DNA of 63,970 nucleotides, filler included, from Sanchytrium tribonematis (Eukaryota), in the NCBI GenBank assembly GCA_018985235.1. It is 5 parts of 5 records of this genome, joined end to end, with 100 filler letters (N's around TTAATTAATTAA, not from the genome) between each part and the next. Parts side by side here need not be neighbours in the genome. Positions count along the whole stretch, not along the records: positions 1 to 13,323 come from JADGIG010000191.1; 4 more parts are not named here. One strand, given 5' to 3'. Below the pieces are notes generated by a model. The model searched no databases. It was not told the DNA's origin and was given only the letters and a program-made list of their open reading frames with translations. Below, in pieces: positions 1 through 53,602 of the stretch. The position numbers and the translations under genes were made by a program. Position 1 is the first letter of the stretch. The number at the start of each line of letters is the position of its first letter.

Positions 1-1
1 T

Positions 2-424
2 TACTGATTTTGGTACTTTTTGCAAATTGTATTTTGATTTCCAAGCAGATGGCAACACAGCAAATGACCCATATCCTTCTGTATAGAAAAAAGTGAAAAA
101 TGCTGTTTGCATGGAATTGTTGTACACGTCATTTGCAATACAATTTGGTCCATGTTTCACACCTTGTTTCTCAACAAAAGCAGCCTTGATCATTAGATAA
201 TGGCATTTCAATTTAATCATATAATTCAATAAAGTGTTAGTCATGTAGTCCATTTTATCCCCATTTTCATGACATTTAAGAAGATCAACACATTCACTAG
301 ACAACACTTCAAATGAGTTTAACATGGTTTCATTGCCATTATCTGTCATATCAATAATAGAATGCTGAAGAAGAACAACAATAGCACAAGTGTTTTGAGC
401 AGGATCGCATCCGATGATGATCAT
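2..424 (-). CDS. RuvC-like / poxvirus A22 / Ydc2-type Holliday junction resolvase, 3'-truncated by the window edge
   Basis: Manual translation (absent from ORF track): MIIIGCDPAQNTCAIVV...AAFVEKQG...AVLPSAWKSKY. It shows the N-terminal hhxhDP motif, the hhExQ motif and the PxxWK motif. 141 codons without a stop, with an in-frame TAA just before the ATG. Confidence 0.7.
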   Translation of the reverse strand, partial: MIIIGCDPAQNTCAIVVLLQHSIIDMTDNGNETMLNSFEVLSSECVDLLKCHENGDKMDYMTNTLLNYMIKLKCHYLMIKAAFVEKQGVKHGPNCIANDVYNNSMQTAFFTFFYTEGYGSFAVLPSAWKSKYNLQKVPKSV

Positions 425-2509
425 TTATTTATGAGAGCGAAGCTCGAATCTTAAGTAAAACGGGGGACACAATCATTGGTCGGTTGAACAGATCGTTTTA
501 TCTGATTTATCCAAACATAAAGTGTTAATAAATAACGTAATTTATGCCTTTTTTGGGTGAAAAGTAGTGAACCGTTGATAAAAGAAGTTTAAATTTTGGG
601 ACATTTGCAATTTTGACAATTCAACTAATAGATGCTGTACCTTTTCACATACATGGGAGAACACAAAGCACACAATCCGATAGTAAGCCAAAACAAATCC
701 AACACTAAATTTCATAGTTTTTGCAAAGAATTTACCACATTAATCTCTGAGTCTTCTTGGGGTTTGTAGAATCTGTACTATTGAAATGTATCTCATATGA
801 TTGGATGCCAAAATTCAAACAATTGAAGATTTTGGACTTTTAAATGCGATTATCTTCAACGAAACAGCAATGTTCACCTTTACAATCAAAATTCTGTCGA
901 TTTTAAATTGGAAATTCAACTGCCGCAACGGCAAATATCGATTCTATCGTATCTTACCGAGTACTGAGTTTTGAAATGATTTAAGATGGAATTAAAATGA
1001 CATAAGAAATTATCATCTGGTTGCGAGATCCAATGATATTGCGTTTCCATTTTCCAATAACATTTTTTCTCTAAAACATCTTTTTTACATTCGAATCTAT
1101 TATTAATGATCTAGAATTGAAACAAAACATGTATCAGTTTCATTACCATCACTAATCATGGACATTTTGAGGGATTGACCATTTGAAGCTTCATTAATTG
1201 CTGACATTCATAATATTTTCCTGTAAATGTACCAAAGAACTTTGTTTAGGTATGCTTAGAATATAATCTATTAATAACTGAAATTTCTACTATTTTTTGC
1301 CCAAAAAGCCTCATGATCTGTTCAAATATCATTTGTAAACAGGTAAATGTGATATTTGGGTTTGGGGTTTTGGTAAATAAAATACTGAAATTTGGTGATT
1401 TTTTCCAGATATTTTTTCGCAATAAATCGACAATCTGGTGCACTCAGAACTCAGAAATAAATACACATACTTTTAATACTTTTTCGCTCAATATTTATTC
1501 GATTTTACACTGTCATTGCTATTAAAATTTCATATTCACAAACAAATTTTGCTGCCACATTCCCATAAATATCAAAATAGATGCTAATTCACCATATTTT
1601 GCTCAAATAAATATTTATCTTGATAAAAAATCACATTTAGTTGTTTAGATCAAGCTAGTTAGCGATCTCTTTACTTTGTATGAGCGTTTAATGTGGCTTC
1701 TTATTAAAATAAATTTTTAAAACAAATATATTTACAAGAAAAACTTTCTAAACAACTAATCAACAATACCACGTATAAAACATGACTCTAAATTTACATT
1801 AAAATGCTTATAATTTCATTAGGTTATTTATTAAGTAAATCACAAGTGAAAAGAAAAAACTAAGAAAAAGTTCCAACAAAAAACTACGTTATGTTTAATC
1901 AATTATGATGCTTGAATTATGTCAGTTTTAACAAATCCACTGACCAACCACGATCTACAAAAGATATTTAATAAATGCTTCAAAGGAGAGAATCCTCGAA
2001 ACTATAGTCAGCATCATTTGAGCGCAATAGATTCCAGTTATTTGTCTGATTTTATTATTGCAATTTTCATTACACGGTTTATTTGCAAACCATATTTAGG
2101 AATGAATTGCTAAATAAGATTGAAAGTGAGTGCATTTTCATTTAAATATATCAAATATATACAGAGTATAAGATGAGTGATGTTATTATGACTTGAACAT
2201 TCATATACATAATCTGTTAGTAAATTTTAAAAATGTTGCCTTTTTATACAGTACAATCCTCTTATTTTAGCATTCTTGACAGAATCCTTTGTATAAATGG
2301 TATTTGTCTAGCTGCTCTTGAAGAATTTGGGGATTAAGTATGTCATATTCCTGTGCCTTTTGTATGACTAGATCTTTTTAGCATCTAAAACTGCTTTTAG
2401 TTGTCTTTGTGTGGTGGAGATAGAATGCATGATTCCCGTGTTTATTGAATTGCGCCTGTAAATAAATAACTTGTGAATATGATTTTTTGACTCAGCCATC
2501 TACGTAGAT

Positions 2510-4203
2510 CTAATCCCATAAGTCAAAGCAAAAGAACAGTACTAGAATATACCCATTTGGCTCTGTTGTTTCAAAGATTATCGAACAGCAGTGGCATGAT
2601 TCAGATGATGTTTCGTGCAGTAATCTTGCAGTTAATTGTACATTTCTAATGCTTTCTAAATAAAATTGAATTACATTGCCATAAAATTCGTATGAAATTG
2701 AGAGTAAATCATCTTTGATCACTCGTTTTTGGTCATCATTGATGCCATTTATTCTGGCTAAATTTACGGCATTTAATATTTATTTCAAACGTATCGAATA
2801 TACTTTGTTGTATTTACATTCTGGTAAAATTAGCATTTTTTAATGATCCAATCTAATCATGTCTTTAAATCGTTTTATTTATATTGATTCCTCTTTTCAT
2901 AGTACTTATAAAAGGTGTATTCCTCTTCCAATTCCATTGGAACCATTTTGTATTGATGGCATGTGCATGTTGGCGTATCCAATTATGATACTTTTTAATG
3001 TAAATGAGTTGGTGAGCTCCGAATAAATGATAGAGAGAGAATGCATCATTCTAGGGGAAAAGAGAAAACATGTCCATCGATTTTGACATCATGGCAAACA
3101 GTACTGTTTGAATTAATTCGACTTATATTATTGATGCCTGTTTTTATATATACACATTGAAGATCAACTTCGTGTGTAAACCGAAATTTGTTTTGCGAAT
3201 ACCTTAGCAAGCGGATACCTTTCTTCATTCATTTGATACTCTGTCAAATGCATTTTATCAGGATTGTGATTTTCCACTAGCGATCTGAGTTCTGTTTCAA
3301 GGCTCCCATTTCGATTTCCACGGCAATTGTAGGAAATAATATCAAAATTATGAATTTGATCTGCCACAAGGTAGTCTGTCAGGATATCACCATTACCACC
3401 TCTTATCCTGACTTGAATTTCTATATTTGTTGTCCATTAATCAATAATAAATTCATCAGTAATCAATTTTGATCCATTTAGAATTTTGGATTCCATCCAG
3501 TTAATGTTTGATATTCTATCATTTATAAAGTTTCGGACATCTGTCAGTTTACAATGCTTGTGGTAATAAAAAGGGTATGTTTTTCCAGTATCCATCTTGA
3601 TCCAGAGAAGATTTTCTAGTTGCTTTTTAGTTTGAAGATGTAGAATAGGTAGATTCATTTTTGATATGATTAGTGTCTGAAGAGAATCTTTTGCGCTTTA
3701 AAGAAGGGGACCATAGTAAATCATCATTAATTGATTTGGTTTTGAATCTCCTCTTCTCTAAATTAGATTTGAAATACGCGTCCAATTCAACAGAATATTC
3801 AACAGTGAGCTCAACAATCTGCTCTTTTGGGATATTTGCTAGAATGCAATCTACTTCAATAGGTTCTCGTTCTCCACTTGGTAGAATGATGTAAATGCTC
3901 TTTATATTTGGCGAGGTGATTTCGGGTGGAATTTTACACTCAATCATCGTTTTCAAGATGCTTTCATTTAAGGATACGGATATCCTCAAAATTGTCCAAA
4001 TTTTGGTCATTATAATCAATAGGGGAAGGCAAATCTGTTTCAGCGTCTTTCAACAAAATATCGTTACTAAAGATGTCAGAGTTACGTATAACAATATTGT
4101 TTGCTTTGTTTTTATCAGTTCTATCTCTAAGATTGTGTGTATTGCCAGATGTTTTTTCAAGCGCGTTTTTATGCTCTTGAAGGGCATTTGAAGAACTAGT
4201 CAT
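2510..4203 (-). mobile_element. Degenerate non-LTR retrotransposon 1: ORF1-like region, ubiquitin-like domain, APE endonuclease and possible C-terminal zinc-finger remnant
   Basis: IISYNCRG...NPDKMHLTE (APE start), SIIIGYAN (GDFN-like) and RLDH. UBL at 3395-3613 ends RIRGG. CHCC..ET at 2510-2722 resembles the LINE C-terminal Zn motif. Many stops and frameshifts; no RT seen. Confidence 0.65.
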
Positions 4204-4563
4204 GGGAATTTAGACTCCATGCGTTTCATACAGTTTAGTGAATACAGTTAATTCGTATATGGGGATCCAGCCTATCAAGTGGGTCAATTTATAATTTCTC
4301 CATATAAGGGCACAAAAAAAACCAGAGCAATGGCATTATTTTATACATGCATGTCATCATTCAGAATATGTGTAGAATGGGGATTTGGTAAGGTGGTAAT
4401 GGACTGGGCATTTCTTGATTTTTACAAAAATCTAAATATAAACAACCAGTGGCTAAATTGTATACTGCTGGAGTGCTGTTATCAAAAATTAGATCATGCT
4501 GCTACAATAATCAAAGATTTTAAGCATTTGGTATTCCTGTTCCGTCAATTCATTCTTATTTAA
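4202..4563 (+). mobile_element. PIF/Harbinger transposase (DDE_Tnp_4) C-terminal fragment
   Basis: YGDPAY..ISPY..MSSFRICVEWGFG..WAFLDF motifs; disrupted. Confidence 0.85.
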
Positions 4564-4604
4564 ATAAATAATTTATTTATTTACCAATTTTTCATTTTAA
4601 ATGA

Positions 4605-4925
4605 CTACCACATGTCTCTCATCAATGCATTTTCTTGCTCTTTATTGATGGCATTCTTTACATCTACTTCCACTTTCTTTTCTTCAATCAAGATTCGTTT
4701 TTCATCCAATTCAAGTCTTTTTTCTTTAATTGCAACTTTTTTCTCGATTTCTCCCAAAGTGGTCAGGTCAAAAATATCTCTACCGTATTTGGCCGGATGG
4801 AACGGTACCATTCTATTCATCATTTTGATAATCAGATACCATTGTAATAGGGTATACCGCCTTATTAGAACAGTGTCCACTTGGAGTCGACGCGATGGAT
4901 CATGAAAAAATTGACTTTGTCCCAT
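4605..4925 (-). mobile_element. Probable Harbinger second-ORF remnant (coiled-coil tail)
   Basis: EKRLELDEKRILIEEKK charged coiled coil, convergent with the transposase as is typical for Harbinger elements. Confidence 0.45.
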
Positions 4926-5184
4926 TGGGTCAAAATTTGACTATAGATGAGCAAAGCAACCGGAAATTAGGTCTCAGAAAGACTACAAGGAACTATTGCA
5001 AATCAACTCGAATATTTCAAGTAATGCGCTTCCAGAGCTAATGTTTGATAAAACAATTAATAACCCTGACAATGATACAAGTAGACCCAAATCTTTTGAT
5101 GTTACCGTTATAAAATAAAAAGTAAGAACTAGATACATAGATGATGTTAAAAGCAACCCATCTTTACATTCTCTCCTTTTAAAG

Positions 5185-7311
5185 TTGAAACAAATTCATT
5201 TCACTTTTAGTTGTAAAAATGTTATGCATTCTGAGCCTGCTACCATTGAAAGCTCTATTGTTGACCAATCAATTATTCATATTGGCTGCACAGCTGATTT
5301 TCGTTTGCCAGAGTTCCATATAAAGAATGATGTAAAGCTATGTAATTGGATAGCACGTATGTCCTTTTTGGATGTTTCAACAGAGTCATGGAATCAAATA
5401 ATTTCACCAATGGAAGCAAAATGGCAAGCACTATCTATTAATGACACCTTTAAAACGAATAATGGCAAATAAAAATGTGTTACAGGCGTAAAAGAAATTG
5501 ATGATATATTTGGTGTTGTAATTAGACATTGCCGTTCCAATCAGTTTCAAATTAAAGTCCCAATCATCCCCAAATTGATTGACTTGATTGATTCAAAAGA
5601 ATTAGAAAATGTTTTAGATGGTAAACATTTCGGAAAAATTCATTTATTTAATCTCATCTTCACAGATGACATTTGGAATCATAAAAATCAATTGAAAGAT
5701 CTATTTATGAAGTGCAAAGTCAATGTGCCTTTCTTCAGACAGTTAAAGCACCGCGAAACAAAGGAAAAAATTTTTATTGATGACAATTGACAGAGAATTA
5801 AAGAATTCTGCAAATTGGGTGCAATCTACACAAATGCTAATGAATGTCAAAATCAATCAAATCGATTCAAAAGATTGCACCAAGTTTATACACTTTGAAT
5901 CCCCCAATTTTATGACCTTTGATGGACATCTTCTACAGATTCACAGTATTGCTAAACAAAAAGAATGCCACCAATTAGTGGTCTCAAAAATAGTTGCTTT
6001 TCAACTATTTGATTACATTACACATCTGACGATTGGATTTTATTTAAATACTTTTCGAAAGCAATTGCAACATATAAAGAATGAAATTATGCGCAAAATT
6101 ATTGCAAATACTAAAATTCTTTCCGTCGTCTCCACTGGAATTAGAACCAATACTGCAATTGACCGAGACTCCCCTGATATCCCAATGGCACCCTAGAAGT
6201 ACCTAAAGAGTTTGCAATCACATTGATGCTTTACAGCGATTTGAGTGATCAAGCATTCAGCTGAACTGTCTGAACTGTCCCTCTTACTGTCAAAAGCTCT
6301 ATCTCTACTTTAAAAAATGTCTTAAGTGACAAATTACCAATTTCTAAAGAATTACTTCAAATGGACGCATTATAGTGACTGAAAATTGTGTAATGTCTAA
6401 AGTGATTGAAAGTCAATTATTTAAAGTGACTCTGGTCTGCTCTGTAGAATATATCTGGTTAATCTGTTCTCATTTAGAGGTGAAGAGATGGAGGAAGATG
6501 CAGAGAACTACAAAATAAATTGATTCCTTCATCTCTATCACCTCTGGGGTTTAAATTGATTCCTCCATCTCTATCACCTCTGGGGGTTTAAATTGATTCC
6601 TTCATCTCTATCACCTCTGGGGTTTAAATTGATTCCTCCATCTCTATCACCTCTGGGGGTTTAAATTGATTCCTTCATCTCTATCACCTCTTAGAAATAC
6701 ACCAATCATTTCCCCAGCAAGCAAAAGAATTAAATATTATCCCATAAAAAAGAGACAGATTTTTGTCACAACGCCAAATCCCTTGTTCTACAGATTAATT
6801 ATGAAATCACTCTTGAACAACTAATCAACCAACAGAAATTATACTGTCATTACTTTCCATACTCGCTTTATAAATACATGACAAATTAATCTTGTCTTTA
6901 CCCTTAGAAAGTAATTGACTCCATGTTTAATCATATTACAATTTCCAAAAGATTAGAAGGAGGTAGTGCTGTACATGAGTCAGATCAAAACATTTCCACT
7001 GATTGCACATTTGCTGACTCTCTTGGTGTTTTGGAGATCATTCAAGGATACATTCCTCCCTAAATTCCGACCATTATCCAATACTATTTCGATTGCTTTT
7101 AACAAATTCTATATCAATACTACGTCAAATTAATTGGAATACACTTCGCTTCGATCGACATGACCGTGAAAAGGTTGTAAACTATCTAGAAACTAAATTT
7201 GGCGAAATCCTTCTTCATTCAACCGATATGACCAGTGATGAACTATTTAGACACTTTTCGTTTGTCACATTCAGTGTTGGGGCCAAAAATTCTTCCAAAT
7301 TTAAGTTTTAA
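5185..7311 (+). mobile_element. Degenerate non-LTR retrotransposon 2: broken upstream ORF, ubiquitin-like domain and APE C-terminus
   Basis: Broken long frame at 5185-6196 (membership inferred). UBL at 6756-6964 (RQIFVTTP/KSLVLQINYEITLEQL...NHITISKRLEGG). NSDHYPILFRL at 7063-7095 is the APE terminal SDH motif. Confidence 0.55.
6516..6691 (+). repeat. Tandem repeat, about 4.8 units alternating 36 and 37 bp
   Basis: TAAATTGATTCCT(T/C)CATCTCTATCACCTCTGGGG(G)TT starting at 6516, 6552, 6589, 6625 and 6662; no spacers. Confidence 0.95.
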
Positions 7312-7315
7312 CAAT

Positions 7316-7484
7316 TGAAAAGAATAAGCTAAAAGGTAAGGTATTTATTAATATCGAGTTTCCTTAAATAGATGGTGCAAGTAACTGCTTGTCACCATCT
7401 CTCCAATAAACAATTGTATCATTCCAATCAATTGTGTCGACGTAATTAACGACATTATCGTCATCGTTAATATCATCCATAACA
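7316..7484 (-). repeat. Putative 3' LTR of the gypsy relic
   Basis: Purine-rich GAGGGACACGA followed by TGTTA right after the integrase end, with an internal AATAAA. The CA end is tentative and no second LTR was found. Confidence 0.3.
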
Positions 7485-8280
7485 TCGTGTCCCTCAGTGG
7501 AATCTTTATAATATGGCATAATTCTTCGAATATTCACAGATTCCACTTCTCCATTTTCCTTTTCAATTTTAACACATTTCGACTTTTCAATTCAATAATT
7601 TTATAGGGTCAAAACCATCACTTAGAGAATTTGGTCTTTTTAATTGGATTTTTCAATAAAACCAAATTTCCAACATTGTACTTGTGATCAATTCTGTTTG
7701 CATTTTCTTGATTTAAATTGTACAATTTCAATTTCTTATTATCAACATTTTTCTTAGTTATTGGCAAAGAGGGTAAAACCATATCCATTCCAAACACTGC
7801 ATTTCCTGGCGTGGTGCCTATACTTGAATGGTAACTAGATCTCATAATCCAGCTAATGGCTGGTAAATGTAGATGCCAATTAGTCAACCCCTTTGTCCTT
7901 AAATGTTCATTTACAAATCCATGACTTCTTTCACAAATTGAGTTGTATTGGGGATTGCAGCTTGTGGTGTACATGTGACTTATCTCAAAACTTTTCAACA
8001 ATTCTTCAAATTCATTCCCTAAAAAGTTGGAACCTTGATCTGTGATGACAAACTTCGGGCGAGGGTATTTGCAAATCCAATTCTGATCAAACATTTTAGC
8101 AACAGTTTTCCCAGTAGTCTCTTTAAGCGTGATGAGTTCTACTAGTTTAATTTTAATGTCTATAATGCTCAAAATATACTTGAATTCATTTCCATCTGCA
8201 TTTTCAATGTCTTCTTCTGTCAAATCTTCATCACTTATAATTGAACCAATGATATCATAAGCAACTACTTGTAAATTGCC
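7485..8280 (-). mobile_element. Ty3/gypsy-type integrase (rve) relic
   Basis: VAYDIIG (D1), ITDQGSNF (D2), NSICERSH (E), TPGNAVFG and a degenerate GPY module with stops. Confidence 0.85.
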
Positions 8281-8569
8281 GATATTTTTATCAATATCCC
8301 CTAATGGGGTTTTTTGGATTGTTGCAATAACATCAAGTTTTGTATTCTAATCGATAAAAAACTATAGTAAAAAAAAGGTGAAGCAATTACTTGATATTTT
8401 AACGGTATGATAGTAATGGCTATCTACACTAACTGGGATATATCCTCAATGTCAGATAAAGTCCCCCGTGCGGGACTTGAGTGAGTAATTACGAAAGTAT
8501 ACTCAACTCCCCCCCCATATTTTCAGAATGTCAATAACTAATTACTTAATTCATATATTTATTTTATTT

Positions 8570-9030
8570 TCACCAGTTAAAATTAATGGTTTCTTGTGAT
8601 TCAAATCGAGGAACATTTACATCAAAAATTTTCTCATCTTCATCAAATTGTGCAGTTTCAAACTCTTCTGCAGTCATTGAGTATGTTGTTCCATTTAATA
8701 ATGCATTTACAACATTAGACCAAACTGAAATGTGCTCAAATGATGCAATAAACTGTTTTTTCAATAATCTCAGGAGTCACTTTTGCCCATTCACAGGCAA
8801 TCCAGTCTCTTAATTTTACAATTCCTGGTTTTTGGAAGACTTTTGGTTTGTTTCGGTTTGCTTGAAATTCATCAACTTGTTCCTCATAGAAGTTTAAAAT
8901 TGATTTTCGAATTCTTGCTTTAAAACTCTTAATCAAACCAACTTCTGCAAGTTGACAATAACCTATTGTTCCTGCTGGAACTTTAATAACTTCAATTTTC
9001 TTATTCTGGAAGTATGATTCAATTTCTGAT
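8570..9030 (-). mobile_element. pogo/Tigger DDE_1 transposase C-terminal fragment
   Basis: VPAGTIGYCQLAEVGLIKSFKARIR (PxxxTxxxQPLDVG..K.FK-like) and W..VTPEII; frameshifted. Confidence 0.75.
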
Positions 9031-9031
9031 C

Positions 9032-9218
9032 TAAGGTTACAACATCTAGTAACTAGTATTAGTAATTAATTGACTTTTTCAGAATTTAGAAAACTGGTTA
9101 CTAGATATTTACGTCAAAATACTACTTAATATCTAGTAACCAGTTACCATATATGAACAAATGAATTTTTAAAATCCATATAATTTTTTTTTTCTCACTC
9201 ACTAGCTTGTTAACCTTA
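9032..9218. mobile_element. MITE-like element with imperfect terminal inverted repeats and an internal 18-bp perfect inverted repeat
   Basis: TAAGGTTACAACATCTAGT (9032-9050) versus reverse complement TAAGGTTAACAAGCTAGT (9201-9218). Internal inverted repeat at 9092-9109/9128-9145. Abuts the truncation point of the pogo fragment. Confidence 0.45.
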
Positions 9219-9239
9219 TACATCATTTTTAACTTAAAT

Positions 9240-10397
9240 TTGTCATTTGATAATCTGTTGCTGTACTTGTGTTTGATATAAGTTGTAACTGAAACGATTG
9301 TTCATTGGCAATTGTCACACCACTAATAGAATCAAGCTTAATTTTTAATTTCAAAATTCTGGGAAATATTTCAAATATCAGATGAGACTAATATTACTAT
9401 ATCAGTTACTAGATAATATCTAGTATTTGATGTTTATTTATTTGAGAAACAAATCAATCTTGATTTATTTAGTTCAGTTCAAGAAAATATATTAGACAAT
9501 AGAATTACAGCATTTATGAATCATTTCAACCTGCATTAATTGTCTATAGGTGTTTGATGTAGTCATTGACTATTAAAAACCCCTTTAATAAATCTTCTTC
9601 TTCTTCTTTCGAATTGTAAACAGTACCGAAATTTCTCTATATCGATTAATTTTTGATGTAGTCGGAGTTTTGGGAACTTATTGTAATGTATCCAAATTGT
9701 TCCGGACAGTAGCCAGTATTCAACATTATTTGTAAAACATATTTTAGAATCGATCTCAAAGTATTGCCGTCATACTTAACAGCCTCATCAATGATATTGC
9801 CTGATGTTAATTTAGAAGTTGACATTTGATATTTTCAGTCGGTCCTTTAGGAATTTCAGATGCTTGATAGACTGATTGGGAATTTTTTGAGTATTTCCAT
9901 TTGGGAAGACCATGGATGTAGATAAAATGAAAGCCGATTTTATATTTTTGTTTGTGATTAATCTGATCTTGTTTCTCTTCATCAGTGGATTGATTACTTA
10001 TCACTTTTACAACTCACACTTTTACAATTCAGATATTTCTTTATCTGGAACATTCTCTTATGTTTCGTGATTTGCAATTGTTTTTGGGGATCTGTTTCTT
10101 CTTTTGTTGCAGTAGTTGATCTATAGGACTTAAATGAGGTTTGAAAATGGTGGTTTTCATTTCATTGATAGATTTTGGATGATTTTTATGTTGTTTATTA
10201 ATCTGATTGTTAATTTGAGATGATTTAATAGTAGTGGATGTCTTAAATGAATAATTTTGATTGTATTTTGTTGATTTGGTGAAAATATCAAACGATTTTA
10301 TGGTTTTTAAAATGGTTAAATGTTTAGTCATCCCTCCGTTGTTGAAGATTAAAAAACCTTCAATCCAAAAAAGAGTAATCAAGCGTAAAGCTTGCAA
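9240..10397 (-). mobile_element. Probable LINE ORF1 and start of ORF2, degenerate
   Basis: Low-complexity N/K/Q-rich ORF, then a GFHFIYIHG segment, then a decayed APE-start-like segment near 9450-9565. Weak. Confidence 0.3.
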
Positions 10398-10399
10398 TT

Positions 10400-11625
10400 A
10401 ATCTTGACAACGTTAAATCAACTGACGAACTCTCAATGGGTCAATACCAAGAAAACATTCATAAACATTTTGTATTTGTTAAGAAGTAATTTAAATTTTT
10501 TGCTAAAGGAAAATGAACAGAGCCTGATAAATCAACGATTTACAACGAGCTTTGAATGGGGCTGCACTAATGAGATTTATTTCTTTCGAACCTCAGCAAA
10601 CTTTGGTAAACGTCATGCAACTGATCAGTCCCGTTGTGAGATGCTTCATATATTTGGTCCTCATTCTTATTCCGGATTTACTCCAATCTTTTGGAATATG
10701 CCCAGCGAAGTATGAAACAAAAAAGAGATTATTTATTATAGATATGGAATTTGTTGGCAAATATTTAATTACCATTGCTGGAACTATATTACCACAGGCT
10801 TTTTTTGGACATTGATGTGCCTTAATTCAAATTTGATTTTTTTACGAGTAAAGAGTCTCGTAATATCCTGTTTTGTTTGTGCTTTTTCTTCCGTGGTCAA
10901 TACATGTTGATTACAATTATGTCTAGTATATTTAAAGTGATTGGCTTGATGTTCTATCACATCTTTGAGATTAGAAAAAAAGCATTTATTTTATTGGTGT
11001 TATTCTTTATTGTACACAACATTATTTGCAAGATCATTCAGTATTATAAGTTGTTCCTGATAGGTTTTTCTTTCAGCAAATTTGTTGTATTCTGTTGCTA
11101 ATTGTCTAATTTGACTTATTAGTAGCATTTTGCGACTTTTGGTAAATACTTCTTGAATATTTTTTTTGTTTAATCTTTATAAATTAACTAATATTTAGTG
11201 CGAGTAGAATGAGGAGAATGTGGCTTATTATTAATAATACCAAGAGTTGTTCTTTCTGCTGTTAAAATGCAGTTTTTAAATGTAGTATTTATTAGACCGG
11301 GATTTGAATCGTCAAGTAGAAGATCAGATTGTTTTGTAATTAAATCATGTAAAGCAACTCGGATTTTTTTGGAAAATGCATAAACTTTCAATTTCACAAT
11401 TAAGGAGTGGGGATTCAAATTTAATTGTTATTGGAAAGTGGTCACTTGTATAAATATCGTCATGATGTAATTATTTTCCTTAGTAATCGATGAAGGACTG
11501 TCATGACCATGTTTGCACTTGTAAAGAATCTCTATGAGATCCTCAATAAATTCATTTTGTACCAACTGAATGATTTGAAGTAATTTTTCCACCTTTAAGT
11601 CATGCTTTGTGGATGATAATATCAA
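10400..11625 (-). mobile_element. Degenerate non-LTR retrotransposon 3: APE end and RT N-terminus
   Basis: TSDHFPITIKF (SDH at 11438-11446) and KKACG...VIKYLP...NNLF...GHIPKDW (RT domain 0/1). Confidence 0.7.
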
Positions 11626-11762
11626 AACTTGTAGCCATCAAGTGGATGGGATAGAGAAAGTATTTATTAAAGAGCTTATTGCCTAATTTGCTAATTATTA
11701 GCTAACAATTTGCCAATATGGCTAAATAAGTATATTTGCATCCAATAGAGAATACAAAAAAG

Positions 11763-11920
11763 TTGTTTTGATTTAAATGAGAAGTGTAACTATTTTTTAA
11801 TTTATTTGGCATGTAAGAGGTGAAATTTGTTTTGATTTAAATGAGAAGTGTAATTCAAAATTTTCAAGATTCAAAGAACTATTTTTTGATTTATTCGGAA
11901 TGTAAGGGTTGAGATTTGGT
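11763..11920 (+). repeat. Short local duplications
   Basis: TTGTTTTGATTTAAATGAGAAGTGTAA exact at 11763 and 11827; the adjacent ~40-bp segment is imperfectly repeated near 11879. Confidence 0.8.
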
Positions 11921-13323
11921 AGATTATCATAGTAAGCTTTCATTTTTTATCTTTGTAGTAGATTTTTCTGGACTATTTAAATAGTTTACTATTTGCCCCA
12001 ACTTTTAGCATGTTACCACGGCATAAAATTGTAAAATTCCGGAAATTTACATAAGGACTGAAATTTTTTTTTATGAGCAAATTCTATTTATTGCCCAGTA
12101 TGAATTGCTGTTTGACTCAAAAGTGCATCTCAAGGTGTTCTCTAGTACACGTTGAACCAATATTCTGTCACACCTTCGTACACTTTGGAAATCGAGAATA
12201 AAGTGAAAAAATAAATACAATTTGTGGTGTTTATAAAAGATAGGGATCAAACGTGAGTAATGACGCCGTTGCAACTCATCCGAGAAGTGCAATAAATGTT
12301 ACTAATTATTTTGAGAGTTCTGACAGTGAAGTTCGTAGCTATTTAAAAAAGATATATAAAGTGGCAATTTTGGCGCCGAAGGTAAAACTCTTTAAATGTA
12401 AAATTCGGGGTCGTAAAATGCTCCAAATAAAAGCAATGTTCAAGAGCTTTCAAATTCTTCTATTAAAGATCGATCAAATGATTTCAAAACTGACTATACA
12501 AGCTTTGTGGCGTTTATGAAAGAAAATAAGATTGTTTAGCGTTGACCAATTCGATATGTTTTAAAGAACATCAAAAAATTGAGAGACATAATTTTGGTAA
12601 TGAAATACTTGCTGCGATTTATAAATATCGATCCGATGTGCTTTTAGCTAGATCTCAGAAGCTGATGAAAGGATGCATGTTTTGGGGATGTTTTCTTTTC
12701 AAGGCAAAGGCCCATTAGCAACTTTTGACGGTTGAGTGATTGTAGCAGATTATCATTAGTTCCTGAGTTAGATGCCTCTAAAGGTAATTTTAACCTTATT
12801 TTCACGCATGATAATAGGGTTATTAATTGATACTGTACTGTATGCTCAATCCAAAAGAAAAACAAAACTACTATGAGCCAAAAGAATATTTCCAACCTAC
12901 TATGAACAACATTAAAAAAATGAGGAAAATTTATTTTTATTTCTTTAATAAACTAAATTTTCACACCTTCAATAGCTCAGACCCTTTTGTTTTAAAAAAG
13001 GTGTGTTGCATCACACTCTTGACACCGTGTTGAAACATTTCTCCTGCCAGACATGAGCGTCCAAATCATTTATTAGTTACTAGTCCCCACCATTATTTCC
13101 AATATCCACTTTAGATTTCTTGTTAAAATAGATTCTGGTGTGATATGTATTAGTGTGTTTGGCATACAAATACAATTCACAAAATATTCAGTTAAAATTG
13201 GAATAGATCTACTTTTTCCATAAAGCAGTACATACATCCGCCCTTCATGACACAAGGAGATCTCCCAGTCACTGCATCGTCTTCGACCCAAAATGGCAGT
13301 CACGCTCCTGTATCCAACAAAAC

Positions 13324-13423
13324 NNNNNNNNNNNNNNNNNNNNNNNNNNNNNNNNNNNNNNNNNNNNTTAATTAATTAANNNNNNNNNNNNNNNNNNNNN
13401 NNNNNNNNNNNNNNNNNNNNNNN
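13324..13423. other. Artificial contig linker
   Basis: 44 N + TTAATTAATTAA (stops in all six frames) + 44 N. Confidence 0.98.
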
Positions 13424-26737: not shown

Positions 26738-26837
26738 NNNNNNNNNNNNNNNNNNNNNNNNNNNNNNNNNNNNNNNNNNNNTTAATTAATTAANNNNNNN
26801 NNNNNNNNNNNNNNNNNNNNNNNNNNNNNNNNNNNNN
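26738..26837. other. Artificial contig linker
   Basis: N44-TTAATTAATTAA-N44. Confidence 0.98.
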
Positions 26838-40124: not shown

Positions 40125-40224
40125 NNNNNNNNNNNNNNNNNNNNNNNNNNNNNNNNNNNNNNNNNNNNTTAATTAATTAANNNNNNNNNNNNNNNNNNNN
40201 NNNNNNNNNNNNNNNNNNNNNNNN
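40125..40224. other. Artificial contig linker
   Basis: N44-TTAATTAATTAA-N44. Confidence 0.98.
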
Positions 40225-41466: not shown

Positions 41467-44400
41467 ATGAAAAGTATAGAGCTTCGATCTATTTTGGAAG
41501 AGTGCTATAAGCAACCTGCACTCGCTATTAATTTAAATAACATGATTCAATCTTTAAAGCTAGAAGATATCGACAATGTTTCTGAATGGGCAGAACTACT
41601 TTCTCAAATATTTCGTATTCAACCTACTTTATACTACAGCTGCTTAGATATTGTCAACTACTTGTATGCCAAAAGTCCGAATGATGTTAACATTCTTATG
41701 ATCAAAGACCAATTCGATTCAGTGAATATCACTCAATATTATGAAACGCTTTACAAAAATGATAAATTTGCTACTATTTTAAATTTGTCTAACAAGATTG
41801 ACAAAATGCCTCGATGTACTTTGGAAAGTCTGTCGTCTATTATTGATGTCAATAATTCTATCATCAAGACTCCTACTATTCTCAATAATATTAATACTAT
41901 TTTAGGTGAATTATTCTCGTTGCCATCAAAACCTATCTTAATTGTGGGATCAAACTGTGCCACTTCTACGATACTCAAATTCATCTACTCAATATTTAGG
42001 AAATCTTATGTCCCCCTTTATATTGCACACGATGCAGATTTAAAGGATTTGATCGGTTATTACATGTGCACTAAAAATGGAATTGAATTTATCAACGGAC
42101 CTTTATCGAAAGCAATAAAATCCGGTGAGTGGTTGGCTGTTAATATTCAGAATGTTCATAAAGATATTCATCAATTTATAGCAAAGTCTCAAATATTTAA
42201 CAAAATACAAACTGATGAATCTGAAATAATTTGTCACTCAAATTTCAAGGTTATAGCAAAATGCGACAAGGAGCCTAGAGACCATGTTTTCCACTCAGTC
42301 TACCTTCAAGAAATCCCACACGATGAATGGATTCATATATTTTCAAAAAAATACAACGTGGAAGGTTTGAGGAATATTTATGATTGTTACATTGAGCTTA
42401 AAATATCAATTAATTTATTAGATTCTTGGTTATATAGAATCAACGCCTTGAAGTGTACCAAGTGGAGTCTTGAATCCGATAGATTGAAAATGGCAAAAAT
42501 AGGAACGCGACTTTTGACTGAATCAAATCCTGTTGAGGTTTTGACTAAGCATTTTCTTCTCAAATCATCTCAGCTTATGTCTCAGTATATTGACCCGCCA
42601 GTGATTACTAGACAATTATTTCAAATTGAAAATTATTCGCTAGCAAGACTCGTTAATTCTTTAGATGAATACAAGTTAGCCTGGATACCATCTAGTAGTC
42701 AATTAGCTTTAGATATTATGGCAGCTTTGTATCATAATCAAGCTTTGCTGCTCATTGGTGGAACTGGCTGTGGAAAAACTGCAACAATTTCAGAAATCTC
42801 AAGAATAGTTGGTTTTCAAATGACAGTGCTCAATTTTTCACCCTCGACTGAAAGGCAGGATCTTATAGGTAGCTGGAAGCCCTCAAAGCATGTTGGAAAC
42901 ATTCACAAATTACATCATATTTTAAATTTTTTGCAAGGTGATACTAAAAAACTAGAGCAAAATTTATACGAATTAGCTTGTGTGAAATCTTCTGAAAAAT
43001 ATTTAAAATTTGTTCAGCAAATCATTAGTTTACTTACACAACAACTTCATTCGAATAAGAGATTTAAGTCCGAGCATAATCCCGATGAAATAATTAAAAA
43101 ACTTCAGGATACTCTTGATCAAAAGCAGCCGAGTATGTCATTTCAAATTGGACCTTTATTAGAAGCGTATAAAAATGGACATTGTGTGTTCCTAGACGAA
43201 ATTAATCTCGCAAATAGCGATGTGCTTGAAAGCATAAGTGAAATTTTAGCTAGTCCAGCTATTCAGCTACCTGAATGTCCTCTAATTTCGAGGCACAATA
43301 ATTTCCGGTGTCTGGCAGCAATGAATCCTCACGGAGATCACGGCAAGAAAAAGCTACCTCGTCAATTGGAAGATCAATTTATCTCCATTTTTGTGAAAGA
43401 ACCAACAGATTTACCTAGTATACATAAACTGACTGGTGATTTGCTTAAAGACTTTAACCACCCAAAAGTGGATCAAATTATTCAATCAGTTTCACAGCTA
43501 TATTTTGACATTTTACAAAAGTCTGATAAAGATTGGCTTCACGGAAATGAAGGGAGACCCGTGTTTAGCATAAGAAGTTTAAAAAGAGCCTTGGGACTAA
43601 CTCTTTCTTTGATAAATTGTCATTGGGGAATCAACGATGCACTTCTTTATGGATTTGATATGGCATTTAGCATTTCTTTGAATAAGCCTAGTCAGCTAGA
43701 TTGTAATCAAATGATTGAGGCATCACAGATGCAACTATTTAAAAAGGGAATTTTAAACAAGCCCATTGAGAAATTATTTGCCATGTTCCCTACCAATTCT
43801 GAAAAATTTTCGAATTTCATCATGACTCCCAGTCTCGAAAAATACGGTAAAATCATTCTAAAAGCAATTATAGCTGACATTCCGGTTCTTTTAGAAGGTG
43901 AAACTAGTTCGGGGAAAACAACGCTAATCAAATACATTGCGCACAAGACAAATAATACCTTAATACGTATAAATAATCATGAACACACTGACTTGATAGA
44001 ATATGTTGGTAATTATACTATAAAAGGGGAAGAATTTGTATTTCAACCTGGTCCGTTAATTCAAGCAATGGAGCAAGGCCATTGGGTGCTTCTCGATGAA
44101 TTAAATTTAGCCCCAAGTGAAATTTTGGAAAGTTTAAATAGACTTTTAGATGACAATAAGCAATTGCGAATACCACAAACTAATGAAATGATAACCCCGC
44201 ATCCTAATTTCCGATTGTTTGCAACTCAAAATCCTATCAAATATGGAGGAAGAAAACCATTAAGCGCTGCTTTTAGAAATCGATTCATTGAGATTTTTGT
44301 TGACAAATTCAACTCTGACGACATATCGTTATTGTTGAAAAATAGCATTCCCAAATCTTGGATTCAAAAATTAATTGGTGTTTTCACAGAACTTGATTTA

Positions 44401-47400
44401 ACACTTAGGGATGTTTTTAAATGGACCTCGAGAAATTCAGAGACAATTGATGATTTTATCATGCACGGATTAATGCTAGTTATGGAGCCTAAGAGAAATG
44501 AGAAAGAAAGAAAGAAAATATTTAAAGAGTTTCAAAAACAGTTTAAAATGAAATGGTCCATGGAGGAATACAATGAAAAAATGACAAATCATCCTATTGT
44601 TTCACAGTTTCCAGAATATTCTTGGCATCCACAGTTTGTAAAATCGTTTGCACTTATTGAACAATGCATTCTAAACAATGAGCCAATTTTGATGATTTCA
44701 GAACCGGGAATGGGAAAAGGAGTTTTGATGGACATTGCATCTAAATTTTTTAAAGTAGAGCTAAACACAATCAGCTGTCAGCAAGAAACTGATGTAAATG
44801 ATATAATTGGGACTTATACGCTTAGAAATAGAGAATTGGTATGGCAAGATGGAATACTACCAAGTTGTATGAAAAATGGAAATTTTCTTTGTCTTGACGA
44901 AATCAATTTGGCCGATGACGCAGTTTTAGAAAGACTCAATAGTGTTTTGGAGAAAAATGGATACTTGCTTTTGACTGATCATCTACAAGATCTGGCCCCT
45001 ATCATTCCGCACCAGAAATTTCATTGTTTTGCAACCATGAATCCCTCAACTGATATTTGTAAGCGAGAATTATCCCCAGCTTTGAGAAATAGATTCACTG
45101 AAATCTACTTAGAAATTCGCTGGGATGAAGACCAAGTTTTGGATTTTATATCCAATTTTTGTAAAGTATCGAATTTAAAATTACAAATTGGTGTTCAGAG
45201 AAACATCTGTGAAAAATATATAGCCACTCAAGGTTTGACTTTAAGAAACATTGAACAATGTTGCAGATTGATGAATTTCTATCCAAATCATCCAATGATT
45301 TACAACACATGCTTTGGTCTCAGTTTGGAAGTTGATGTCGAATTTGATAAAAATAAGAAAATTTTGAATATTCAGGAAGAAGAATTTGATCTTTGTAGTT
45401 TTACCAATTGGTCATTGACTCCTTCATCCTTGTTCAATTTGCAGCAGGTTATCATTGCATCAAAAATCGATTTACCAATTCTGATAGAAGGTAAGCCTGG
45501 TATTGGAAAAAGTACTCTTGTCGAATATTTGTGTAAATTAAAAAATACGCCTTGTTCTAGAATTAATATTTCGCATGATACGGATTTAAGTGATTTGATG
45601 GGTCAATATGTGACTGAATTTAGTGAATCTTTAAAAATGGTCTGGAAAGATGGTCCACTGATGACTGCTATGAAATTGGGATACACCATTATTTTAGATG
45701 AGTTAAATCTTGCAAATCAAAGTGTATTAGAAGGTCTAAATAGTATATTGGATTATAGAAAGATGTATTATTGCAGCGAGTTGCAAGAAACTATAAAGTG
45801 TCATCAGAATTTTAGAATTTATGCTACTCAGAATCCAACCAATGTGAAAGATGGTCGAAAACTGTTGCCCAGATCTTTCATGAATCGATTTATACATTTA
45901 AAATTTAAATCATATTCTAAATCTGATTTACTTGAAGTTGCTGCACCTTTACTTGAAAAATATCAGGAGATTGTCTCAATTCTTGTTGAATGTAATGAGA
46001 AATCACATTTATTACAGATAGTTTCCTCTAGCCACGAATGGAATATTAGAGATTTGTACAAACTAAAATCACTGAGTGTGACACATTCCCTGTATGAAGC
46101 TATTTGCATCTTGATTTTGAATAGAATTAAAAATAAGCGTCTAGGTTTAGATATAATTGAGACTCAATTAAGTCCTTTAAATCTCAAAACCACTGTACTA
46201 TCTCATAAATCACATTTGCAGCCTATAATATCGGATTGTTTTCCTTTGTATTACTTTCAAGCAACTTACAAAAACATGCAATTAGTAGCAAATCAATTTC
46301 AAGGAGCCAATATTGTACACGTTAGTTCTTTCACAGATAGCATAGATATAATTGGTGGATATCAACTTGTCGATCAAATATTAAAATGGTCTCCTTCGAA
46401 ATTTATCAATTGTATTCAAAGTCCAGGTGAGACGGTGATAGTTGGGATTGACGCATGTGAAAATGCTGTTTTCGACAGCTTAAATCAATTGCTAGAGAAC
46501 GGTCAAATTATGGTGAAAAATGAGTTGATACGAATGCACAAAAACCACAAATTATCTCTAATTACCCATAGCCACAATTACTCAAAAGCTCTAGGAAATA
46601 GATGCTGCATCGTTGAACTTTTTGAAAGATGTCCTTATGATGTTTATTGCAACCAGCCTTTCTTATATTTATTGCATGAATTTCCAACTTATCGAAATTT
46701 TGCAATTCATTTCCAAACTTTGTTTGCAGTGAAATCATTGTCTGTGGAATATTCAATTTACAGTGATTTTGATAAAATTGAAAATAATTTGTCTGATATA
46801 CAAATTTTGAAGAATGTGTTTGAGATGTTTTATCCATTTGAAAAGACGAAATCTTTCAATTTACCTTTATTTTATGAAAATTTGCAATCTTTAAGGAATG
46901 GCACTTTAAATCCGACAAAATTGAACAGAATGTTGTTAACAAGTCAGTCTTTGCATTTTAATAGATATCTTAAGCAGTCATTTAGTAATCTATACGGAGA
47001 TTTGATACAAGGTAGTTTAAATGAACATTTGAATGCCAGGAATACGATATCTTTGCTAAAAGCATCGTCCAGAGTTGATTCCTGCACTTTTAATATTAAA
47101 GAAATACTGTTAATGTATGCAAAAACCGATCCATTTTTTGTAATTGAAAAAATGGTAGAATTCAAGCGTATATTGGGTCAATTTATGACTGAATTTCCAA
47201 ATATTGAGAAAGTTGCGGACAATGTTGGCGTAGAGCTCAAACCATTTGATGTCATGCAATTGCACAAATTGTATGACGAAATTGCATTTGATGCATTTCA
47301 AAACTGTCCAGAGTTAGATTTTAAGTATTTTCAAAAGATGCTACACTTGCTGGACGATTTGAGTGACGAATCCAAGTCTATCTTAACAGATTACATTTTG

Positions 47401-50400
47401 AATGTTATGCCTAGTCGACCAGACATTAGCGGGGTATTATTGCTAGTTTTAATGCGTAATGAATCATTATTTAAAGAAGAGTCTAATTCAGTTAGGTCGA
47501 TTACGAGTTTATTTCTCAACCCACTTTCATTTGAAGATATGAAACTTATTTTACACACTGAAGAGACTCAAATTGATGAAATGGAAGATTTATTTGATAT
47601 TCAACCTACTTTGGCCATGACTTGCATTTGTCTTAATTTGATTCCTTATTGCGGCAAGCAAGTTCAAGAAATGTTTCCACTTCATATTTATCGGTCTTAT
47701 TTTCTAAAACATCATGTCAAGGATATCAAGACAAATATTTACTCTTATCCTGAATTATTCACAATTGAGTTGATGCAATTAGTTGTCAATCAAAAACCCA
47801 ATTTGTATGCACATGATGCACCACCTATTCATATTTTAGTTGAAATTTTCACGAAATTAGAAACACTTTACAAGAAATTAGATGGCTTGAAAGATACTGT
47901 TACAGATTTATCTACAATGGAGAGTTTATTGGATAAATTGAGTGTCTTTTTGAAATCCCCTATGCATTATTTGACCATGCAGTACATTAATAATCAACTA
48001 ATGCATATGTTGGAAGAAATGGAACAATTAATCTACATTACGAGTAAGCGAGATCACCAAATTAAAATTATTTATCAAGAATTGTGTCAAGTCACCATGG
48101 GCTTGCGACAATTGCAATTACAATATCTTACAAATTTACCAATTATGGTTCATATGAGAGTCATTCAGAGTCGATTGAATGATTTTGTTAATATATTTGT
48201 GCAAGATGTTTTGGATGATATTGTTAAAATCAAGGCGTATCTCAGAATCGAAATGCCTGTCATTTTGTACCCTTTTGCAATAGCCATATTTCAAAAGACA
48301 ATGCCATTTTTTAGTCATTTTTACCAAGATATTTATAAATGGACACACAATACGCATTCGTATGAGCATTGTATTAAAGATTTAAAAGAATTGCAGACAA
48401 TTCACAAATACAAGCATAAAAACACTTTATATGTGAAAGATCAGCACGATAAATTACATTCAGCAAGCACAAAGATATGTCATGTCTATTATGATCAGAT
48501 TAAAAATCCTTTAGAATATGTCAATATTATTATTCCAGATATCAAAGTAGACACAATCTCGATAAAGCCAAAAACTCAAGAAGAAAGTATCACTATCAAA
48601 TTTATTGATGTTTTTGATGAATTTATGAAAGATGTATTTGCTAATTTCCCTAATAATAATCATTTGGCGTCATTTATGAGAACTGTTAAATTTTTTAAGC
48701 CCTTTAAACATGATTTTGATATTTATGAATTTATTAGAAGCAATCCTCAACCATCAACATTATTAACGCAATTAGTATTGCATTATTTCCAATTCATGTT
48801 GTATTTAAAACAGAATTTGTTGGTTGGTGATTATAAAAGAATCAGTAGAAGCATTATTCAAATCTTTTATCTAATTTTTTATTTATATTCTGAAATTTAC
48901 AAAGATCAAGATTCCAATGAATTGGTTAAAGAGGTTATTAAAGATGAATTAAGCGATTTGAATATATATTCGTTGATTAAATTGACTAACTGTGAAAACA
49001 TACAGACTTTAACAAGAACATTTATGCATCGCACGCTCTCCATTTGGACAAAGGAACTCGTTCAAATGATTGCACTATTTAAATCTGCATTACAAGATAA
49101 AGACAATAATCAAGAACAGAGCAATGAGAATCAAGAATATACGACGAGCACAAATTGTCAAGATGTTACAAATGAGGTGGAGAATGTCGAAGATATCACA
49201 GATTTACAGGGCCAAATGGAAAATGGCACGACACAGCAAGATGATGTAGTTGAAGCATTAGACCAAGTTAGCGACATGGATGAAATTGATAAAGATGACG
49301 AGGATTCTGAACCAGATGTTGATGACCAACTTGATGATATTGAGAAAGATGTAGAAAATAAGAATGATGGTTTTTGGGATGAATTCGAAGAGAAAGAACA
49401 AGATTTATCAGAATATCAAGATAATGAAGATGCAAATATGAAACCTGAAGAAATGGAAGAAAATCCACAAGTTGATCAAAATATGGAACCAGAATTGCAA
49501 GAAAATGAAGATGCTACAGAAGCAAATGAAGATGAAATATCAGAGGTAACCGTGGATGCGCAAGATACCAGTGATGCAGAAGATGTGGATATGCCAGAAC
49601 AAGATCTTGATGATATTGATCCTGATGCTCAAAATATGGAAAGTGTGAGTGAGGCTGTATCCGATATGGAAGATGTCGAAAATATTGATGAAGAGAATGA
49701 AACTGCTGAAAAAGAAGCAGCCGATGTGGATCTGTATGAATCAAAAGACGCTAAATACGATGCTCAAGATTCAAATATGACTGATGCCATGGATGCCAAT
49801 AACGAAATGAATGATGAAATGGAAGACACTTTAAATATTAATAATAACAATATTGGAAATACAGATGCATCCAAGCCTGATGAAGAAGATGCTGATCAGA
49901 CCCAAGAAAATACTAAAGATGAAAATTGTATGGAAATTGATAACAAATCGCAACTACAGCCATCGAGTATTAGACAAGAGCAAGAGCCGAATACTCAAAT
50001 TATTGAAATGCCTGATGTTAAGCCTGTCATGTTGAATCTTAAAGATATCTTTAATGATTGTATCCTACCAGCCAAAGAATTAAGTAAGGAAATTCACCAT
50101 CTAATGCAATTTAAAGCAAGAAGCAGATTTATGGGTGATTACATGAGTGGAAAGAGATTAAATATCAAGAGAATCATGAATTATCTTCAGGGAAATAGCA
50201 AGATCTGGCTCCGAAAGAATAAGCCAATTCGAGATCCATTTCATGTCATGATTAGTATTGATAATAGCACTAGTATGCAAACAGATGTCAGATATGAATG
50301 CGCCATGTACGCATTAATGCTGATGAGTATGTCTGTGTGTTCTGGATATGCTGGAAATACCACATGGAATGTATTTGATTCTGAAGTACATGAAATAATG

Positions 50401-53502: not shown

Positions 53503-53602
53503 NNNNNNNNNNNNNNNNNNNNNNNNNNNNNNNNNNNNNNNNNNNNTTAATTAATTAANNNNNNNNNNNNNNNNNNNNNNNNNNNNNNNNNNNNNNNNNN
53601 NN
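53503..53602. other. Artificial contig linker
   Basis: N44-TTAATTAATTAA-N44. Confidence 0.98.

Follow-up and report, generated by a model that had tools for sequence, protein, structure and literature searches.

The decayed sequence at about 5100–7310 (+ strand) of a contig of Sanchytrium tribonematis, a tiny fungus that parasitizes algae, is, with a probability of roughly 0.93, a single element of a real family of LINEs whose members combine, in one ORF, a ubiquitin-like domain (UBL) closed by a diglycine, an APE domain and an RT. The copy itself is dead and its value is that of a pointer to the family. It lies on the first contig (positions 1–13323, JADGIG010000191.1) of a window of 63,970 nucleotides, which is the whole stretch of DNA analysed, filler included, and which joins five contigs of assembly GCA_018985235.1 end to end.

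The relic begins with a decayed, ORF1-like N-terminal region (5098–6175, +) that runs over two frames and belongs to no known family. This region is colinear with residues 82–384 of the family protein P0007 (z 11.3, 0/300 shuffles) and with its residues 313–465 (z 3.5, 2/300 shuffles); it gives zero matches in Pfam and in PDB, as do residues 1–465 of P0007, and its position suggests the role of an ORF1. It is followed by a first beta-grasp domain devoid of a GG tail and broken by frameshift (UBL1, 6196–6516, +), which was recognized by profile and by comparison with P0004 (z 5.8 with 0/300 shuffles and z 5.1 with 0/1000). The profile matches in UBL1 are weak and colinear (6196–6375, E 0.11; 6351–6449, E 7), the scores of P0018, P0002, P0013 and P0007 against it are weak or absent, and its fold is taken from a relative, residues 48–145 of P0018. 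This second, GG-less domain and the long N-terminal region upstream had been missed by the original prediction. The linker between the two UBLs contains a tandem repeat (6516–6691, +; 4.8 units of 36/37 nt according to TRF) whose units are spaced by 36, 37, 36 and 37 nt, the 37-nt units breaking the frame, and a basic patch, SPASKRIK (6711–6734, +), lies downstream and resembles an NLS, a function that it may have.

The second domain, UBL2 (6753–6964, +), ends in RLEGG and contains, as had been described, one frameshift and two stops, all the motifs quoted for it being present in a six-frame reading. RQIFVTTP begins at 6753 (its Q is at 6756), the frame changes near 6770–6776, the new frame begins at 6776 with KSLVLQINYEITLEQLINQQ... 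(KSLVLQ) and is interrupted by TAA at 6887 and TAG at 6905, and RLEGG ends at 6964. A post-GG linker of a conserved STDC..AD type and the first APE strand come next, in frame with UBL2 (6965–7042, +; aligned with P0004, P0003, P0018 and P0001). Beyond a deletion junction (7042–7064, +), the relic resumes in the third frame with NSDHYPILFRL, which starts at 7063, 98 nt past RLEGG, and belongs to a stretch (7063–7311, +) that carries the C-terminal SDH motif of the APE and the beginning of the APE–RT linker and that matches nine family proteins by tblastn (best P0005, E 4e-12). Of the APE, only the first strand and the SDH survive in the relic, and the RT is absent. Its boundary, near 7310–7332, abuts a neighbour outside the LINE, the remnant of an LTR-type integrase (7332–8346, -; Pfam rve, E 2.1e-7), and two contigs have loose ends at 7332, where the two meet.

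By itself, the UBL2 segment (6753–6964) matches nothing in Pfam; phmmer of each relic UBL against PDB gives only chance matches, and zero ubiquitin, APE or RT matches were found by Pfam in 40 translated pieces of the contig 1–13323. The [RK]xxGG motif is weak alone, since the whole window, read in six frames, contains it 15 times (the 13.3-kb contig 4 times). Judged by the profile of its relatives, UBL2 is nevertheless beyond chance. This profile, built from eight family UBLs, the window sequences and the near-copy P0001 being left out, was scanned over the six frames of the 64 kb; its top two loci are the UBL of a second relic, element 1 (E 4.4e-8), and 6761–6964 (E 2.9e-5), and the best unrelated locus reaches only E 0.94. 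By tblastn, UBL2 also matches P0018 (E 2.8e-6) and P0003 (E 1.1e-5).

The two sides of the junction, 6776–7042 and 7045–7308, match the same proteins in the same order, none of 300 shuffles scoring as high for either side. The left and then the right side match residues 245–298 and 487–565 of P0004, 8–93 and 287–367 of P0003, and 198–262 and 464–543 of P0002; with the more distant P0006, P0007 and P0013, the right side (7045–7308) alone scored. As the intact proteins and their order are common to the two sides, these are parts of one internally deleted element. Measured by the residue skip in P0004 (298 to 487) or in P0003 (93 to 287), about 556 nt (~0.55 kb, 185–190 codons) of the APE core are missing, which bears out the original proposal of an SDH end located about 100 nt after the UBL with most of the APE deleted.

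Multiple interspersed copies of the element exist, as sister contigs with 6–11 differences cover parts of 6400–7286 at depths of 49–121. One of them (record 6; 791 nt, depth 102.5) fits 6831–7042 with 11 differences and carries 580 further bases. The bin depths correspond to 13.0 and 23.0 bases at this depth of 102.5, and this arithmetic fits a return of the 791-nt contig for 23 nt within 7065–7099, near the SDH codons; sister copies presumably keep an intact APE core. One sister contig has 7 extra bases at the UBL2 frameshift, which restore the frame there, another is devoid of the first UBL2 stop, and every sister contig carries its own breaks. Among the placed sister contigs, none spans 7043–7064 or 7100–7169, and this one deletion, at 7043–7064, could conceivably be an assembly or amplification artefact. 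An origin of the UBL and SDH pieces in two elements lying side by side, which the original prediction had named as its refutation, or a chimeric join made by the assembly is very improbable. The two pieces do differ in frame, and 7043–7064 is crossed by no sister contig, but five consecutive regions from 5098 to 7308 keep the domain order of the family, the left piece already enters the first APE strand, the sister contig extends 580 nt beyond 7042 with a depth that fits its 23-nt return, and the family architecture would stand even with a chimera.

The family was retrieved by a phmmer search of P0001 against 1.84 billion representatives, which gave 25 matches. Ten of these extend upstream of the APE and all ten carry a domain of 70–75 residues, or its end, closing in GG; 11 others are fragments beginning inside or after the APE, and the last four are generic APEs beginning at the APE. 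Labels were looked up for 21 of the 25, the four generic APEs being left out, and correspond to 12 S. tribonematis sequences, eight ENA records and one NCBI record. In the architecture of the family, encoded by one ORF, a second beta-grasp domain comes first, in many members with a basic patch after it, and is succeeded by the GG-tailed UBL, the APE and the RT; the UBL-GG-APE arrangement is a family trait. P0004 (1260 aa) and P0013 (1302 aa) are full-length ORFs that run through the RT, which has a YADD motif and is accompanied by a C-terminal Cys/His knuckle, and P0007 has in a single ORF an N-terminal region of 460 residues, both small domains and the APE. RVT_1 was found in P0004 (E 1e-33), P0005, P0013, P0006 and P0003, Exo_endo_phos_2 in P0001 (E 2e-7), and the catalytic motifs of the APE (N, E, Y, GDxN, D and SDH) are conserved in the family alignment. 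The basic patch is present in five of the eight members having sequence there (both window relics, P0002, P0007 and P0013) and absent from P0004, P0018 and P0026; the SP..KR patch reported before both UBLs of the window is indeed found in each, SPSLKRKR preceding the UBL of element 1.

In a tree whose references were 10 unlabelled metagenome LINE RTs (27 of 37 loci and P0029, with no open frame combining an anchor motif and enough length, were left out), the five RTs of the family group together (100/100) on a long branch. Because they make up a single clade, the best-fitting history is an ancient capture that happened once, with diversification afterwards. A metagenome scan gave 37 loci at 23–35% identity, most of them short or without sequence upstream of the APE, with a best UBL profile match of E 0.96, and the UBL-APE architecture was not found in metagenome or viral contigs. 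A first word-index protein search gave one match, P0001 (E 5.8e-71 to element 1); another scored 7995 candidates, of which it retrieved P0007 and P0013 alone while known members escaped it, so that absence elsewhere is weak evidence, and a search restricted to proteins of 2280–5000 aa gave one unrelated fish protein only. The nine ENA and NCBI records may come from the same lineage as the S. tribonematis members, because P0007 matches the upstream region of the relic and a P0013-like relic lies on the same contig. As sanchytrids evolve fast, according to the accessible part of PMC8371127, divergence may overstate the age of the family. The family had been proposed to be old and diversified: UBL-GG-APE is a family trait and the family has diversified, but its membership is seen in one lineage and its age is unproven, 'old' resting on divergence in a fast-evolving lineage. 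Similarly, the two UBLs of the window had been called very dissimilar apart from the patch, which holds for their cores (16% identity over 58 columns) but not for the flanks, since the tail and linker of the relic share 32% identity over 44 aa, and its post-SDH stretch 48% over 46 aa (E 9e-10), with P0001.

At least three family relics were detected by tblastn on the contig 1–13323, which is a pile of decayed transposons. Element 1 (2859–3908, -; P0001, E 4e-74) comprises the end of UBL1, the basic patch, a UBL2 ending in RIRGG and the APE, and matches the UBL1 profile (E 1.4e-4) in addition to the UBL profile; P0001, which carries the EukProt label Sanchytrium tribonematis, is a near-copy of it. 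Element 1 also seems to be internally deleted, as a sister contig has 456 additional bases at 2771–2773, and elements in this small genome may usually decay by such deletions. A third LINE relic (11460–10596, -), whose nearest relative is P0013 (E 1.7e-23), extends from the SDH end to the start of the RT, and no UBL or APE start was found upstream of it (best z 2.6, 3/200, not colinear). A piece of 20 codons at 8433–8374 (-), with 85% identity to the APE of P0003 (E 2.4e-5), comes from a fourth member of the family and lies next to the remnant of the integrase. Between the two back-to-back LINE relics lies the remnant of a Harbinger-type transposase facing a short coiled-coil-like ORF (4245–4480, + / 4605–4940, -; DDE_Tnp_4, E 0.003). 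A pogo-type DDE_1 remnant (8750–9080, -; E 5e-7) shows a summed contig depth of 680–790 and is probably that of a high-copy element. The other four contigs of the window are gene-dense and fungal-looking, and include a single ORF of 3107 aa (41467–50790, +) that reads like midasin/Rea1 and would be shorter than the yeast protein. The spacers at 13324–13423, 26738–26837, 40125–40224 and 53503–53602 are all N44-TTAATTAATTAA-N44, and 'repeats' there are artefacts.

UBL2 is, from profiles and models, a diverged relative of ubiquitin. Positions 1–72 of the family profile (eight members) align with residues 2–76 of ubiquitin, the GG falling on G75–G76. Single ubiquitins are matched at E 0.03–0.06, by this profile as by the family alignment A1, values for poly-ubiquitins being inflated by summing, and the matches other than RTs and nucleases are nearly all ubiquitin. 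Atlas features, a lead only, placed ubiquitin and Rad60-SLD clusters at 0.82–0.85. Ubiquitin proper was rejected, as the identity is about 18–20% and no member matches the Pfam ubiquitin family (PF00240). Both domains are predicted to adopt beta-grasp folds, the models being those of relatives (P0018 and element 1) and not of the relic at 6753–6964. The single-sequence model of the UBL of element 1 (pLDDT 63) has a beta-grasp topology, and Foldseek ranks ubiquitin first for it (E 1.6e-3, Z up to 6.3). The model of P0018, based on 11 sequences, has two beta-grasp domains (48–145 and 217–292) separated by about 70 disordered residues; its second domain (pLDDT ~80 over 221–290) superposes on ubiquitin, ISG15 and Fubi with Z 8.4–9.7 and rmsd 2.0–2.8 over about 70 residues, and its first domain was compared with one row, the RAF RBD (Z 7.8).

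In an unanchored alignment of 11 proteins drawn from 10 clusters, all 11 have the GG; this alignment is the only independent test of the invariance, as the residue tallies used segments anchored on GG. Of 303 well-filled columns, 18 are invariant and, within the UBL, these are the two glycines alone, most of the others being APE core residues, while the mean pairwise identity of the UBLs is 20% (7–52%, 55 pairs). All 11 UBLs end in [RK]xxGG, with R or K at the position of ubiquitin residue 72, a residue that has a role in E1 selectivity, and in all of them the diglycine closes the last strand, in the register of ubiquitin, whose own tail plays no part in folding. Where ubiquitin has R74, six of the 11 have L and two have R. 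The residue after GG is S, A, T, F or N; it is never Pro (0/11), which blocks cleavage, and these 11 cases give weak support. The distance from GG to the APE varies sixfold, from 14 to 87 aa, suggesting a separable junction rather than a fixed interface. The upstream beta-grasp domain, devoid of GG in the same protein, serves as an internal control.

Because GG and R/K72 are kept, the upstream domain lacks the tail and the GG-APE distance is variable, the simplest reading is that the GG junction is a protease site. A host protease of the deubiquitinase type would cut after GG, freeing the APE-RT from the N-terminal portion; two products would thereby be made from the single ORF, an outcome that other LINEs reach through 2A, and the basic patch, which lies before the cut, could, as a guess, serve nuclear import. 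This reading is held with moderate confidence. Pfam finds no protease in the family proteins. There are precedents: the available text of the corresponding reports places 2A in the N-terminal region of ORF2 of single-ORF APE LINEs (PMC3708506), describes ubiquitin as a processing signal in pestiviruses (PMC8310069) and reports that cleavage of Fubi-eS30 depends on GG (PMC8354635). Against cleavage, the UBL has about 18–20% identity to ubiquitin, whereas most DUBs refuse even Fubi, with its 36% (PMC10611586, in the part accessible); R74 is mostly replaced, the single-domain profile E values are only 0.03–0.06 with no member matching Pfam ubiquitin, and the basic patch is missing in three of the eight members.

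The very low identity to ubiquitin and the loss of R74 would also fit a UBL that is never cut, an integral domain used for protein binding, RNA binding or as a folding aid, with GG as a flexible hinge or binding tail. Uncut UBLs, those of Dsk2, Parkin, Rad23B and the RNA-binding SF3A1, are within about 1 Z of ubiquitin in the comparison of models, and the protein also retains another UBL that has no GG. A hinge would, however, tolerate other small residues, whereas the two glycines vary no more than catalytic residues do and R/K72 is found in 11/11. Furthermore, the tail of SF3A1 is an RNA-binding one of the RGG type, whereas here the tail is followed by S, A, T, F or N and not by basic residues, and the linker varies sixfold in length. 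An uncut domain is regarded as rather unlikely.

Still less likely is that the freed double-UBL piece, with its C-terminal GG, acts as a modifier like ISG15 or FAT10, conjugated via the host E1, or as a decoy of DUBs or E1. R/K72 is kept, two beta-grasp domains are present with GG on the second alone, and the pair of domains modelled for P0018 can be aligned over the length of linear di-ubiquitin and of ISG15 (E 2e-6 to 1e-3), but about 70 disordered residues separate the domains, the UBL surfaces diverge freely (20% identity), unlike those of a conjugated modifier, and the ORFs include no E1, E2 or E3 partner. That a LINE would encode an NLS-bearing double UBL with an exposed diglycine, conjugated by the host or decoying DUBs and so acting on the ubiquitin system, is a long shot.

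The ways in which LINEs with a single long ORF detach the APE-RT from their N-terminal functions are understood only in part, ribosome skipping by 2A being one. If cleavage after GG is true, a fixed and diverged UBL-GG junction would have arrived convergently at another, using host deubiquitinases, and might offer the host a point at which to control transposition. Domains of this kind go entirely unseen by Pfam, and similar UBLs may hide in other transposon proteins.

In the literature searched (Repbase, subscription journals and supplements lay outside the search), no LINE with a UBL ahead of the APE is described, and the word 'ubiquitin' has 0 occurrences in the accessible text of PMC3708506, PMC5348765, PMC4120745 and PMC8371127; this UBL-APE-RT variant is apparently undescribed. 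The family shares with other APE-type LINEs the catalytic motifs of the APE, the RT with YADD, the C-terminal Cys/His knuckle (P0004, P0013) and decayed relics in multiple copies, but differs from them by two beta-grasp domains and a GG tail ahead of the APE in one ORF and by RTs that occupy their own long branch relative to the 10 metagenome LINE RTs. Among APE LINEs, L1Tc, Ingi, some CR1, Crack and Rex1 bear a 2A according to the portion of PMC3708506 available; 2A acts by ribosome skipping, whereas the folded UBL with GG would need a protease. In the closest report located, the giant LTR retrotransposons Burro of planarians also encode a polyprotein with a Ubi2/SUMO-like domain (PMC6431247), but they belong to the LTR class, and the domain is one of several cargo domains, is not before an APE and has no cleavage tail mentioned in the accessible part of that paper. 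Ubiquitin- and Fubi-ribosomal protein fusions likewise join a diglycine UBL to a downstream protein, and Fubi, whose match to the model (Z 8.4) is no better than that of other UBLs, is a divergent UBL that USP36 and USP16 cleave (PMC8354635 and PMC10611586, as far as their available text goes); these fusions are N-terminal, conserved and encoded by host genes, with Fubi at 36% identity to ubiquitin, whereas the domain described here is internal, at about 20%, and fast-evolving. The ubiquitin inserted before NS3 in cytopathic pestiviruses is, like this domain, internal in a selfish polyprotein, and host hydrolases give the enzyme a defined N-terminus (PMC8310069, accessible sections); the pestivirus insertions are recent captures of host ubiquitin mRNA by an RNA virus, whereas the UBL described here is a diverged and fixed trait of a LINE family.
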